6,464 nucleotides of DNA from Escherichia coli (GTDB lineage Bacteria; Pseudomonadota; Gammaproteobacteria; Enterobacterales; Enterobacteriaceae). Shown here piece after piece: positions 1 to 6,217 of the stretch. The position numbers and the translations under genes are program-made. The stretch lies in assembly GCF_003334255.1 (NCBI RefSeq), contig NZ_QOWU01000101.1; one strand, given 5' to 3'. Position 1 is the first letter of the stretch; the number at the start of each line of letters is the position of its first letter. The notes under the pieces were generated by a model. It searched no databases. It was not told the DNA's origin and saw nothing but the letters and a program-made list of their open reading frames with translations.

Positions 1-48
1 TGTTCCGCGTGCGCATAGCCGCATTCACCGCATCACAAAATTCACTTT

Positions 49-106
49 AAAAAGGGTGGCAGAGCAGTCACGGAGTAAAACTGATACCGCCAAACGTCAC
101 CAGAAA
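49..106 (-). ncRNA. dicF: DicF small RNA (ftsZ-targeting sRNA of Qin-type prophages), mature 53 nt at 54-106 plus U-tract at 49-53
   Basis: The reverse complement of 54-106 reads TTTCTGGTGACGTTTGGCGGTATCAGTTTTACTCCGTGACTGCTCTGCCACCC, followed by TTTTT (plus-strand A5 at 49-53). This matches the E. coli DicF sequence as I recall it, with about one mismatch; the match is from memory, not from a search. It lies in the expected orientation, co-directional with the repressor-proximal leftward operon. Confidence 0.8.
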
Positions 107-440
107 ATTGATAACAGAGGGCGTTGCAGCGGGGTTGTCACTTAAGCGTATGGTCAACCTGACAACCCGGTGTCCTCAACGGGGAAGGAATAACCCCGCC
201 ATACTTACCGCCGCGCCATTTCGCGGAGTGCCACAACCGGAAGCGCGCGGTCGACGAAAATTTAATGACGACCTATACAGAGAGACTAACTTCGCCGGGC
301 GCTTTCGTGTTATGCCCTGACTTTTCAGGGATATATCCTTTTCAGTAAACTGTCAGTGCCGGATGCTCACCCGTGTCCGGCGCACGCACTCCACCTGACC
401 CGTGGAGAACTCCTTAATTACCAACCCTCAGGAGGGTGAA

Positions 441-524
441 ATGGATAAAAAGCAAATTGAGGCCCTGCAATCTATTATTGAAAAACAAGATGAAGCTATC
501 AGGATTCTTTTCATATCGCACTGA
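441..524 (+). CDS. Candidate 27-aa small protein (MDKKQIEALQSIIEKQDEAIRILFISH), antisense to the leftward early operon; may be the 5' part of a frameshifted gene continuing in another frame to 720
   Basis: One of the strongest translation-initiation contexts in the window: GGAGG at 431-435, 5-nt spacer, ATG at 441. The ORF ends at TGA 522-524. A second protein-like frame starts at ATG 526 and runs to TAG 718-720 (65 aa). Confidence 0.3.
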   Translation: MDKKQIEALQSIIEKQDEAIRILFISH

Positions 525-679
525 TATGATACTAAATATGCTTTCTGCATTAACGGCTGCGCTTGGTGGTACAAATACAAACGTATACCGCGAAGTTGTT
601 ATTCAACAGATAGATAAATTTGAAAAAACCATAGCAGGTATTAATGCTCATCTTGCAGAACAAGAGAAAGACCATGCTC

Positions 680-1093
680 TTATGGCAATTTCTTCAGTAG
701 CTCTCCCGAAAGTTGAGTAGTTTTAATTGTTGTTTTGAAATAATCACTGCTTTCACATTTGAGTGATTTCATGGCAATCCAAATGCGGGCCTCTGTGCCT
801 GCATTTGGTTCCAGTTGCTGTAGACGTTTTGCGTCTTCCAAAAGTAAGGCGATAATGTGTTTCAGCTTCTCATCATTTGCTTGATTCTTGTTTTCAGTCG
901 AATTCTGTCCGCCGAATAGGCGCTTCTCTTCATACAGACCTATAAAGGCACGACGCACGTTACCGGATATAGTATCGATGGTTTCCTTTTCTACAGTACT
1001 CAGGTCAAGAGTCGCCAGTTGAGAGCGAACCACATTAGATGCCATTTCCTGGAATGGTACTGGTAAATCTTTAAATTCCATCGTCAACCTCAT
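680..1093 (-). CDS. Hypothetical 137-aa protein, second gene of the repressor-proximal leftward operon; no family recognised
   Basis: Minus-strand ORF whose ATG (1093-1091) overlaps the TGA of the upstream YdfA-like gene (TGATG), suggesting translational coupling. Alternative start at ATG 1081. The predicted protein is helical and charged. Confidence 0.6.
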   Translation of the reverse strand: MRLTMEFKDLPVPFQEMASNVVRSQLATLDLSTVEKETIDTISGNVRRAFIGLYEEKRLFGGQNSTENKNQANDEKLKHIIALLLEDAKRLQQLEPNAGTEARIWIAMKSLKCESSDYFKTTIKTTQLSGELLKKLP

Positions 1094-1245
1094 CAGTCGG
1101 AGTTTCTTGCTAACCAGCGATGCGCGCCAGCTTCGGTTTTAAACGTTTTACTTTTGGTATACGTCATCGCGGTAAACGTGCCGTCCTGGTTGGGAAACAC
1201 GCCGCATACCAGAGATTCGCTGTTGCCAAGATCGATAGTATCCAT
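1093..1245 (-). CDS. ydfA: YdfA-like small protein (DUF1391 family), 50 aa
   Basis: The internal ATG at 1245 is preceded by GAGGT with a 5-nt spacer. The product MDTIDLGNSESLVCGVFPNQDGTFTAMTYTKSKTFKTEAGAHRWLARNSD matches my recollection of E. coli YdfA, the first gene after dicA in Qin. The 114-aa upstream extension in the ORF track has no SD and starts inside a hairpin. Confidence 0.6.
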   Translation of the reverse strand: MDTIDLGNSESLVCGVFPNQDGTFTAMTYTKSKTFKTEAGAHRWLARNSD

Positions 1246-1430
1246 GTTGACCTCATTTCCCCTTAACGCCGGGGGAGCGGAACAAAAACCTGCTGCGCTG
1301 TTATACAAAGTGTTCCCGCCGTCATGTTCATACGCCTCGGGCTGGCTACTTAACCCCTGACCACTGCCGGGTAACTCGAAGTATTGCCCTGCATTCTGTG
1401 GGGCGGGGTGGGTTGGTATGAAAAGAAGGA

Positions 1431-1467
1431 TACCCATAGGTATTTAAAAAGTAAATACCTATGGGTA
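1431..1467. promoter_or_regulatory. Perfect inverted repeat (15-bp arms, 7-bp spacer) downstream of the repressor gene; candidate OL-type operator overlapping an early-left promoter, possibly also a terminator for the repressor transcript
   Basis: TACCCATAGGTATTT (1431-1445) and AAATACCTATGGGTA (1453-1467) are exact reverse complements. On the minus strand, TTTACC-17 bp-TAAATA fits -35/-10 spacing within and around the repeat. The half-site CCATAGGTA recurs at 1926-1934 at the repressor start. Confidence 0.45.
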
Positions 1468-1509
1468 AATTTTTGCGGTGTCTTAACTGGTGACTAGTTG
1501 TTTGGTGAG

Positions 1510-1929
1510 CTATGATGCGTTTTGTGCTTTCTTTTTACGGATTTCTTCGTAGATCATATTGTAATACTGTTTTTTCTCTTCAAGAGTTTTTAATAATTTA
1601 TCCGCTTCACTTTCTGGCAGTTCGTCTAAGAGATCTAAAAAAATACGTTGTCGTGGCGTTAGAACCCTTGTTTCATAACTGGAGGCTGTGTTCGTTGATG
1701 ATGAAACGATACCATCCATCCATCCCCGGGGTAACCCAAAGGACTCTTCGATAATCTCCACCATATCATCAGCGATCCGTTTTTTTCCCTTTTTCCCCTC
1801 TGGGTACAACATTCTTGATACATAAGAAGGCTCGCGCCCGATCTTTCTGGCCACGTTAACCGCTTTACCATCGCATTTCTCATCACGAATTTTGATGAGT
1901 TGCTGTCGTCTAAATTCATATTTGTCCAT
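1510..1929 (-). CDS. Prophage repressor, 139 aa: CI-type HTH N-terminal domain with a DicA-like C-terminal region
   Basis: Complete ORF, divergent from the Cro-like gene. HTH segment AVNVARKIGREPSYVSRMLYPEG. The C-terminal LTPRQRIFLDLLDELPESEADKLL resembles the DicA C-terminus (LSPKELELLELFNALPESEQ as recalled). The ATG at 1929 sits 6 nt after a TATTAT -10 candidate, consistent with a leaderless mRNA. Confidence 0.85.
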   Translation of the reverse strand: MDKYEFRRQQLIKIRDEKCDGKAVNVARKIGREPSYVSRMLYPEGKKGKKRIADDMVEIIEESFGLPRGWMDGIVSSSTNTASSYETRVLTPRQRIFLDLLDELPESEADKLLKTLEEKKQYYNMIYEEIRKKKAQNAS

Positions 1930-2029
1930 AGGTAAATAATAGATGCGATTACCGCAAGGTAAACAACCTGTGGGTATTGACTTTTGTTTACCTGCGGGTA
2001 TTCTTTGCTGTGTTTACTAAGGAGTAGCT
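1930..2029. promoter_or_regulatory. Divergent promoter/operator region between the repressor and Cro-like genes
   Basis: CCGCAAGGTAAACAA (1952-1966) and the reverse complement of 1985-1999 (CCCGCAGGTAAACAA) form an inverted pair. A rightward TTGACT (1977-1982), 16-bp spacer and TATTCT precede the SD TAAGGAG (2018-2024) and ATG 2030. A leftward TATTAT sits immediately upstream of the repressor ATG. Confidence 0.55.
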
Positions 2030-2311
2030 ATGGAAGAATTAAGAATATTTCTCAATTCTCTTTCGTCAGATGAACAGCGTATGTTTGCATGCGAGTGTGA
2101 TACCAGCATCGGTTATCTAAGAAAAGCATTGAGTAAAGGTCAAGTGTTAGGGGCATCGTTATGTGTCCTTATTGAGCGAGCCAGTAATGGTGAAGTTACA
2201 CGTCAGCAACTAAGGCCTTTTGATTGGATGAATATTTGGCCCGAGCTGGAAGATACCAAAACGTTAACACAACCACTTTCTAGGAGCTTGATTCATGAAA
2301 ATCAAGCATGA
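2030..2311 (+). CDS. Cro-like transcriptional regulator, YdaS family, 93 aa
   Basis: SD TAAGGAG 5 nt upstream of the ATG. Divergent from the repressor. The segment ASLCVLIERASNGEVTRQQLRPFDW resembles Rac YdaS as recalled (CPAIERATRGEVLCEELRPDIDW). Confidence 0.8.
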   Translation: MEELRIFLNSLSSDEQRMFACECDTSIGYLRKALSKGQVLGASLCVLIERASNGEVTRQQLRPFDWMNIWPELEDTKTLTQPLSRSLIHENQA

Positions 2312-2788: not shown

Positions 2789-3826
2789 ATGGCTAATGCC
2801 TGGCTCAGATTGTGGCATGACATGCCAAATGATCCCAAATGGCGAACCATTGCCAGGGTCTCAGGACAGCCAATCGCAACAGTGATGGCGGTGTATATCC
2901 ACCTTCTGGTGAGTGCGTCACGAAATGTCACGACATGTCACGGCGTGTCACTACGTGGTCACATTGATGTCACGACGGAAGATTTAGCAAGTGCGCTTGA
3001 TGTGACGGAAGACGTAATTGATTCAATTTTGCATGCAATGCAGGGGCGGGTTCTGGATGGTGACCTTATTTCCGGATGGGAAAAACGTCAGGTGCTGAAA
3101 GAGGACAATGGTAACGTTTCGCAAACGGCAAAATCCCCGGCAGAGCGCAAGAGAGCGCAGCGGGAGCGCGAAAAGCTGCGGAAATATGATGCTGATTGTC
3201 ACGATGAGTCACGACGTGTCACGCATCTGTCACGACAAGTCACGACAGATAAAGATACAGATACAGAATTAAACCCCACACATAACGCGCGCATGCGCGA
3301 GAGTGCTCCAACCGGTGAGTCGCATGGTGCGCCGTTGCAGACAGCCGAACCTGAATACCTGGACGGCCTGAGCGAACCGATCGGGAAATTTTCGATGACT
3401 ACTGTCTGGCAGCCGTCGTCGGATTTTCGACAACGGGCAGCAGTGTGGGGTATGGCTCTGCCTGAGCCGGAATTTACACCTGCTGAGCTTGCCGCATTCC
3501 GGGATTACTGGATGGCGGAGGGGAAGGTTTTCACACAGGTTCAGTGGGAGCAGAAATTTGCCCGCCACGTGCAGCACGTCAGGACACAGGTAAAACCAGT
3601 CAGCAAGGGGGTAAGCCATGCAGCATCAGGTGGCACGGCATCACGGGCAGTTCAGGAAATCCGGGCAGCACGCGAACAGTGGGAACGAGACAACGGATTT
3701 ATCAGCAACGGAAATGGCCTGGAAGCTGTGGGAGCTTATGGGGGAGGTGTATTCGAACCGCTGGACTCAGAAGAACGGGGCCGCACCTTCGAAGCTCTGG
3801 ATTGCCCAGATTGGCACGATGACTGA
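2789..3826 (+). CDS. Phage replication initiator (lambda O-like, iteron-binding replisome organiser)
   Basis: Long ORF immediately upstream of the P-like gene. Two arrays of GTCACG iterons are embedded in its coding sequence, as in lambda O/ori. ATG 2789 is preceded by GAGG; the GTG at 2783 is an alternative start. Confidence 0.8.
   Translation: MANAWLRLWHDMPNDPKWRTIARVSGQPIATVMAVYIHLLVSASRNVTTCHGVSLRGHIDVTTEDLASALDVTEDVIDSILHAMQGRVLDGDLISGWEKRQVLKEDNGNVSQTAKSPAERKRAQREREKLRKYDADCHDESRRVTHLSRQVTTDKDTDTELNPTHNARMRESAPTGESHGAPLQTAEPEYLDGLSEPIGKFSMTTVWQPSSDFRQRAAVWGMALPEPEFTPAELAAFRDYWMAEGKVFTQVQWEQKFARHVQHVRTQVKPVSKGVSHAASGGTASRAVQEIRAAREQWERDNGFISNGNGLEAVGAYGGGVFEPLDSEERGRTFEALDCPDWHDD
2915..2978. 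repeat. Iteron array 1: six direct repeats of (t)GTCACGAc at 10-11 bp spacing
   Basis: GTCAC begins at 2917, 2927, 2937, 2947, 2958 and 2969, i.e. one helical turn apart. Confidence 0.7.
3196..3248. repeat. Iteron array 2: five direct repeats of (t)GTCACGAC at 10-11 bp spacing, followed by an AT-rich segment
   Basis: GTCAC begins at 3198, 3208, 3218, 3229 and 3239. The AT-rich stretch AGATAAAGATACAGATACAGAATTAAA (3247-3273) and the 12-bp palindrome CGCGCATGCGCG (3288-3299) follow. Confidence 0.7.
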
Positions 3827-5344: not shown

Positions 5345-5643
5345 GGGTGAGGATTTATATCGCCGGTCCGATGACGGGATATGAAAATTTCAACCGCGAG
5401 GCGTTTCACAGGGCGGAAGATGCGCTGAAACGGGAAGGGCATACCGTTTTAAACCCGGCAGTACTTCCGGACGGGCTGACTCAACCACACTACATGGATA
5501 TTTGCATGGCAATGCTCCGTTGCGTGGATGCGGTTTACATGCTGAAAGGCTGGCAGCAGTCGGCAGGTGCAAGGGCTGAGCTGGCACTGGCGGAGAAACT
5601 GGGCCATGCGGTGATTTTTCAGGAGGTGGGCAGTGAATATTGA
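5341..5643 (+). CDS. DUF4406 protein, nucleoside 2-deoxyribosyltransferase-like fold, 100 aa
   Basis: N-terminal RIYIAGPMTGY and the later SAGARAELALA glutamate motif are typical of the NDT/Rcl-like fold. AGGAGGG at 5327-5333 precedes GTG 5341, which overlaps the upstream TGA. GTG 5347 is an alternative start. Confidence 0.75.
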   Translation: MRVRIYIAGPMTGYENFNREAFHRAEDALKREGHTVLNPAVLPDGLTQPHYMDICMAMLRCVDAVYMLKGWQQSAGARAELALAEKLGHAVIFQEVGSEY

Positions 5644-5872
5644 CCCGGCGATAACGATTGATATGGCCCTGAACACCGGCCTGGCACTTCTTGGTTATTT
5701 CTACATCATGTTCTGCAGCGGACGATGGCTGTCACTGTTGTTCATGAAAAAATGGAATAAACGCCGTAAGCAGGAGCAACGCCAGAAGGCAATGGATGCA
5801 TTTTCGAAGCCTTCGGAATTGACGGCATGGAACCAGGGGATCCAGCTCGCGCAATCAGCAGAGGGGGTGTAG
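5633..5872 (+). CDS. Small predicted membrane protein (one TM helix followed by a basic stretch), 69-79 aa
   Basis: Hydrophobic segment ALNTGLALLGYFYIMF followed by KKWNKRRKQEQRQK. GTG 5633 overlaps the DUF4406 stop by 11 bp; ATG 5663 is an alternative start. Confidence 0.45.
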   Translation: MNIDPAITIDMALNTGLALLGYFYIMFCSGRWLSLLFMKKWNKRRKQEQRQKAMDAFSKPSELTAWNQGIQLAQSAEGV

Positions 5873-5902
5873 TAATCCTTGTATATCGGAGTGAAGAGAA
5901 AA

Positions 5903-6217
5903 ATGACGATCACAAAACAACGAGTAGAAAAAATCATATATCGCCATGAAATGGGACTGAACAGCGATGTCACTGCCGAAGAGGTTTATGACCTGGCTGT
6001 ACTGGCGCTGAATTTATCAAATATCGCAAACCTGAAGCGATACGAGCTTGATATGGATGGTTGCGACTCGTGCGGTCAGGATTGTGGCGCAGATATGACT
6101 GAAGATCCTGATGGTGATTATGTCCTGTTTGATGACGTGGTTAAGTTGTTTGAATTTGATACAACCACTCAAAAGTTAGAAATCCCGGCAAAGGAGGCAG
6201 CCAGTGAGCAAGATTGA
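5903..6217 (+). CDS. Hypothetical acidic protein with a CDSCGQDC cysteine cluster, 104 aa
   Basis: ATG 5903 lies downstream of GGAG at 5888-5891; the track's 5879 start is a TTG. The C-terminal half is strongly acidic (DMDGCDSCGQDCGADMTEDPDGDYVLFDD). The stop overlaps the next gene's start region. Confidence 0.6.
   Translation: MTITKQRVEKIIYRHEMGLNSDVTAEEVYDLAVLALNLSNIANLKRYELDMDGCDSCGQDCGADMTEDPDGDYVLFDDVVKLFEFDTTTQKLEIPAKEAASEQD

Follow-up and report, generated by a model that had tools for sequence, protein, structure and literature searches.

Almost certainly, the minus strand of the window, the 6,464-nt stretch of Escherichia coli DNA analysed here, carries a bona fide dicF gene at 106..54, a locus of a known kind. 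Our overall reading, which we hold with high but lesser confidence, is that this genuine dicF lies in a PL-type operon of a prophage at yccA, that its processing and targets would resemble those of K-12, and that the rare base A50 would make it a mildly attenuated, redundant copy. Published work already covers DicF itself, the operon that encodes it, its targets and its occurrence in several lambdoid prophages of one genome.

Identity of the dicF gene

DicF was the sole Rfam match at gathering threshold across the entire window when 4,227 families were scanned. The DicF covariance model (RF00039) matched positions 105..54 of the minus strand over its full length (model positions 1-52 of 52), with a score of 70.1 bits against a gathering score of 48 (E = 2.2e-14), and a permissive Rfam scan (E ≤ 1) of window positions 1-2100 returned no RNA families besides DicF. 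Read from the sequence, the minus strand from 106 to 49 is UUUCUGGUGACGUUUGGCGGUAUCAGUUUUACUCCGUGACUGCUCUGCCACCC followed by UUUUU. The dicF gene of K-12 MG1655 (b1574; positions 2883-2935 of region L002), annotated as a 53-nt ncRNA, corresponds to window 106..54, and 52 of the 53 bases were identical, the lone difference being a G-to-A change at DicF nt 50 (window position 57, T on the plus strand). The 5' arm, the hairpin loop and the U5 tract were unchanged relative to K-12. The dicF gene at 54..106 (minus strand) thus comprises a 5' single-stranded arm (nt 1-15) and a terminator hairpin (nt 16-52), and is followed at 49..53 (minus strand) by the U5 tract of the Rho-independent terminator, which was read directly and is the same in K-12; the rare substitution at 57..57 (minus strand) turns the C18-G50 stem pair into a C·A mismatch. 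A preliminary description made from the sequence alone had placed a minus-strand DicF with its U-tract at 49-106, had proposed the RF00039 search that proved significant here, and had given GCCGCCC for K-12 where the window reads GCCACCC. Its coordinates, strand and tract were exact (TTTTT at 53..49), and alignment to K-12 showed that the K-12 sequence it gave was right and the one-base difference real.

The early-left operon and its prophage

From end to end, the window matched four complete E. coli chromosomes at 100% identity (JE86-ST05, JE86-ST02, UCPROB-001 and UCPROB-002). On the JE86-ST05 chromosome (NZ_AP022815.1), dicB is encoded on the minus strand (region L001, 11678-11866), starting 135 nt left of window position 1 and lying 187 nt downstream of the DicF 3' end on the same strand, where the preliminary description had expected it, just left of position 1. 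Its product passed the NCBIfam DicB model NF049927 (111 bits against a cutoff of 100, residues 1-62 of 62) and was 61% identical to K-12 DicB, with a conserved N-terminal half and a diverged C-terminal half. Leftward along the same strand, dicB is followed by a DUF1482 (ydfD-like) gene and by exonuclease, DUF4224 and integrase genes, and then by the host gene yccA. The DicB allele WP_000449172.1 travels with A50 in S19-651 and STEC2018-607. According to the NZ_AP022815.1 annotation and the alignment to K-12, window positions 1..48 (minus strand) form the start of the dicF-dicB spacer, which, left of the window (L001 ~11930-11975), differs from K-12 by a 13-nt insertion and a diverged patch of ~40 nt; both are common to S19-651 and absent from AMSCJX02 and LR-21-1.

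Homology to the K-12 dicBF operon, at ~95% identity, begins at window ~425 and takes in the leader, dicF and the spacer before entering dicB on the left. The leader, a conserved untranslated segment at 107..425 (minus strand) that is equivalent to the ydfC 3' UTR and is the source of the DicF precursor, was itself ~95% identical to K-12, and the ~120 nt directly upstream of DicF (to ~window 226) were identical. STEC2018-607 in turn showed 99.7% identity to the window prophage from ~404 leftward to yccA and differed rightward. Since the K-12 homology and the STEC2018-607 identity both begin at ~404-425, the alignments point to a mosaic junction there, to the right of which gene content differs between prophages.

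Beyond this putative junction, the operon begins with a ydfA-like gene (DUF1391; 1093..1245, minus strand; annotated by RefSeq and matching phrog_751, E 6e-36) that retains DNA homology to K-12 ydfA, and a 133-aa early-left gene (680..1081, minus strand; a RefSeq CDS matching phrog_1363, E 1.6e-44) stands in place of ydfB/ydfC; no NCBIfam match was found for the latter. On the opposite strand, two overlapping plus-strand ORFs in different frames, 441-524 and 490-720, match positions 1-23 and 23-92, respectively, of phrog_18692 (92 positions) and appear to be one frameshifted phrog_18692 gene that lies antisense to that operon and carries a strong Shine-Dalgarno sequence (GGAGGGTGAAATG). RefSeq annotates the distal piece of this gene only, as a hypothetical protein.

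The prophage repressor is a 139-aa protein encoded at 1510..1929 on the minus strand (phrog_5736 transcriptional regulator, E 6e-70), which is presumed to control the DicF-containing operon. DicA was considered as the encoded repressor and ruled out: the protein scored 24.5 bits against the DicA subfamily model (cutoff 101), and its similarity to K-12 DicA by BLASTP was confined to the C-terminal ~50 aa (33% identity over 46 aa only). Upstream of the DicF operon, between the repressor and ydfA-like genes, we found a perfect 37-bp palindrome (16+16; 1431..1467) containing two TACC-N4-GGTA sites, which is terminator-like on both strands in a consensus scan and could serve as an OL operator pair, as the repressor gene's terminator or as both. 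Three more such sites, one with a mismatch, form an OR-like cluster at 1950..2000 between the divergent repressor and cro-like genes, where promoter-like hexamers occur on both strands. In total the window holds six TACC-N4-GGTA sites against 1.19 expected, a number reached in 0 of 200 shuffles, with one site outside the two clusters. This arrangement suggests an OR/OL layout of lambdoid type, and we therefore infer that the heteroimmune repressor would control the DicF operon through these candidate sites. A consensus scan for minus-strand promoters matching at least 9 of 12 positions found none between 1260 and 1510; as a candidate PL we propose TTTACT-17-TATCCT at 1455-1427, an 8/12 match.

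The prophage is lambdoid and is integrated beside yccA in JE86-ST05. At the Qin site of that chromosome (ydfJ to rspB) lies a separate full-size prophage with rem, hokD, a DicA-like HTH repressor gene, dicB and a canonical DicF (Rfam 76.7 bits); the genome contains 3 DicF matches. Because a canonical DicF is present at the Qin site of the same genome, the yccA-site DicF is an extra copy. Qin itself was ruled out as the identity of the element, which adjoins yccA while another prophage occupies ydfJ-rspB. The preliminary description had assigned the window to a Qin-type operon with the order dicA-ydfABC-dicF-dicB. The Qin-type dicBF module and the ydfA-like gene stand, whereas DicA is absent as the repressor, the phrog_1363 gene replaces ydfB/ydfC, and the element is a different prophage in which K-12 homology is confined to the distal operon. 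In the right early region (window 5633-5949 rightward; L001 17633-20174), RefSeq marks several pseudogenes (the DUF4752 gene is frameshifted, the Ea22-like gene truncated and the DUF551 gene split), and the prophage is therefore partly decayed.

The A50 allele: predicted effect and distribution

In the Rfam structure, the terminator hairpin has five G-C pairs at its base, of which G50-C18 is the central one, so that A50 leaves a C·A apposition. The covariance-model alignment of the A50 copy kept 10 of 11 model pairs standard and flagged the C·A as non-canonical, with the U5 tract present, and its score was 6.6 bits below that of the canonical copy in the same genome (70.1 vs 76.7). Folding of short RNAs gave a hairpin minimum free energy of -12.4 kcal/mol for A50 compared with -15.9 kcal/mol for G50 (3.5 weaker), and -10.5 kcal/mol for the canonical register with its C·A mismatch. 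The favoured A50 fold is shifted by one base (U15-A50, G16-C49 etc.), so that CCC separates the stem from the U tract, and the predicted probability of the canonical stem pairs fell from ~0.98 (G50) to ~0.01 (A50). Folding thus predicts a loss of stability; the preliminary description had suggested that the stem difference could affect stability. The consensus terminator scan of the window called the DicF terminator in neither allele's register, since the rules of the scan do not allow for a loop and bulge of this size. In the established model of intrinsic termination, the stem must abut the U tract.

Pairing to ftsZ would be weakened as well. The predicted DicF:ftsZ duplex, which includes G50, had an energy of -33.2 kcal/mol for A50 and -38.5 kcal/mol for the K-12 allele (5.3 weaker; RNAduplex, ftsZ -28..+26), calculated with the K-12 ftsZ leader in place of JE86-ST05's own; extended complementarity of A50 DicF to the ftsZ translation-initiation region is nevertheless predicted to be retained. 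For the precursor (the 391-nt leader plus DicF and the 401-nt precursor, each with both alleles), folding yielded an unstable, diffuse ensemble, marginally better than shuffles (z = -1.8), in which no stable RNase III stem emerged.

From the thermodynamic predictions, together with the requirement that a terminator stem abut the U tract, the A50 copy is most likely mildly attenuated: termination would be weaker and the 3' end less well protected, so that the level of 53-nt DicF would fall somewhat and read-through into dicB would rise somewhat. It would also be redundant, given the canonical DicF that JE86-ST05 carries at its Qin site. A copy that has lost its function altogether is unlikely.

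The distribution of the allele was assessed in 5,426 complete E. coli genomes, among which 4,021 records had a DicF match, at 7,242 places in all. Counted as exact 67-mer matches, the K-12 sequence occurred in 3,045 of the 4,021 DicF-bearing records and the A50 sequence in 9, and none of the 22 phage records with DicF carried A50. Neither the compensated U18/A50 allele nor U18 alone on the K-12 background had an exact match in the genome collection. Four other stem changes in the sampled natural alleles all keep a standard pair (e.g. C18U gives U·G, C49U gives G·U and U21C gives C-G). The A50 carriers extend beyond a single clone and include prophages at yccA, potC and tRNA-Ser/mtfA, plus AMSCJX02, whose flanks are ~91% identical to the window, and the allele occurs both with and without the 13-nt spacer insertion and with differing neighbouring SNPs. 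Given these several sites, spacer types and SNP backgrounds, A50, a plain transition, would either have arisen more than once or have moved by short-patch recombination in a very conserved segment. A canonical DicF copy is also present in at least two A50 carriers, AMSCJX02 and JE86-ST05.

Several further observations were made in the course of this survey. In E. coli SCU-171, a DicF variant (region L009, 385-451) keeps the hairpin and ftsZ-pairing part, with C18U and U21C, but is completely different over its first ~16 nt, which form the pairing arm for xylR and pykA; this variant may act on other targets. Downstream of the A50 DicF of AMSCJX02 (region L004, 5127-6294), a truncated 5' fragment of dicB is followed by a Rha-family regulator gene and then by a complete dicB, which looks like an insertion or duplication. 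The T4-like Aeromonas phage AP1 (MT713136.1, a 254-kb record) has a 97% DicF match near the end of the record, beside tRNA genes (3001-3067 of region L012), which may be E. coli assembly contamination or a real transfer. Among the matches listed, dicF is unannotated in every RefSeq/PGAP E. coli genome and is annotated in the K-12 reference record and in phage Tritos; a covariance-model pass is therefore needed to see dicF in RefSeq/PGAP genomes.

The main competitor to attenuation is that DicF is fully functional and G50A neutral, the slipped 6-bp or the mismatched stem sufficing for termination, Hfq binding and stability. We regard this as a serious possibility, nearly as likely as attenuation. 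An alternative stem of -12.4 kcal/mol does exist, the xylR and pykA seed regions at the 5' end are untouched, and the K-12 terminator is leaky already, so the extra effect of A50 may be small. The allele is also found in prophages with intact dicB at three integration sites and on flanks that are only ~91% identical; its persistence in two or more prophage backgrounds that have diverged shows tolerance of the change, which may in effect be neutral. Neutrality is harder to reconcile with the rarity of the allele (9 vs 3,045 records), with the standard pair kept by every other sampled stem variant, with the 6.6-bit lower Rfam score relative to the canonical copy and with the 3 nt that part the slipped stem from the U tract, a spacing unfavourable to intrinsic termination under the established model.

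A more speculative proposal, to which we give limited credence, is that A50 is a natural leaky-terminator allele that shifts output from the sRNA toward dicB read-through and lowers DicF dosage. Genomes with several copies of this toxic module would tolerate such an allele or even favour it, and it would have had multiple origins or have moved by short-patch recombination between prophages. We consider it improbable that this is a decaying, non-functional copy in a degrading prophage, its mutation reflecting relaxed selection with the function covered by another DicF copy. The pseudogenes of the prophage (the DUF4752, Ea22-like and DUF551 genes and the frameshifted phrog_18692 gene at 441-720) and the canonical DicF elsewhere in the same genome would fit such decay, but only one substitution is present in 53 nt, the leader and dicB are intact, with the proximal leader identical to K-12 and dicB passing a curated model, and no damage is seen in the repressor, the operators or the integrase. 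That the match is due to chance, or to a fault in assembly or sequencing, instead of a real DicF has a negligible probability, as a structure-aware model gave E = 2e-14 and the identical 67-mer recurs in 9 independent complete-genome records, several of them from clearly unrelated isolates, so that A50 is not a sequencing error.

Proposed expression and comparison with known systems

In K-12, the dicBF transcript starts upstream of ydfA; RNase III sets the 5' terminus of a 190-nt RNA and RNase E that of the 53-nt RNA. One transcript, ydfABC-dicF, stops at the DicF terminator, and another, longer one continues into dicB-ydfD (PMC10448788). A 72-nt DicF form can arise from RNase III acting on read-through RNA (PMC9438474). 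The ftsZ ribosome-binding region pairs with the 3' part of DicF and xylR and pykA with its 5' part, assisted by Hfq (PMC5069750).

By analogy with K-12, lifting of the repressor in the yccA prophage would yield a polycistronic early-left (PL-type) transcript running from the ydfA-like gene through the conserved leader. RNase III and RNase E would then cut its 5' side: the 190-nt product of RNase III would begin near window 243 (190 minus 53 gives 137 nt upstream), and the RNase E site would lie at the DicF 5' end (106/107). The 3' end would form by termination at the DicF hairpin and U5 tract, or by RNase III cleavage on read-through into dicB. Aided by Hfq, mature DicF would use its 3' part to pair with the ribosome-binding region of ftsZ and its 5' part to pair with xylR and pykA; it would block cell division and alter metabolism. 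Because the 5' arm, the loop and the proximal leader are unchanged, the same biogenesis as for K-12 DicF is expected; for RNase E and RNase III processing and for Hfq-dependent repression of ftsZ, xylR and pykA by the window DicF, the observation that bears on the matter is the conservation of the leader. The uncompensated A50 would be predicted to make termination less efficient, to leave less, or less stable, 53-nt DicF and to allow relatively more transcription into dicB. The rare G50A allele is a ready-made natural mutant for gauging the share of the terminator stem in DicF yield, Hfq binding, ftsZ pairing and dicB read-through.

DicB is an activator of MinC, and lambda kil encodes a division inhibitor of the phage under CI control. 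The window operon resembles the lambda PL operon with kil in lying left of the repressor gene, in being operator-controlled and in encoding host division inhibitors (PMC10448788, PMC3961180); it differs in having an antisense sRNA and DicB where lambda uses the Kil peptide. With the DicF of K-12 Qin, the window copy shares 52 of 53 nt, the 5' arm, the loop, the U5 tract, the leader with its processing region and the position upstream of dicB, whereas G50A, the 13-nt spacer insertion with the ~40-nt diverged patch, the upstream genes, the repressor and the integration site set it apart. In pathogenic E. coli, dicBF loci have been described in several lambdoid prophages per genome, including CP-933M/O/P (PMC5069750, PMC7873438). 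Like those dicBF loci, with multiple dicF in EHEC, the window locus belongs to a full-size lambdoid prophage outside the Qin site, in a genome with several copies. It shows no difference in kind from them and represents a further mosaic with a rare allele. Its significance goes little beyond annotation, the allele being a minor curiosity.
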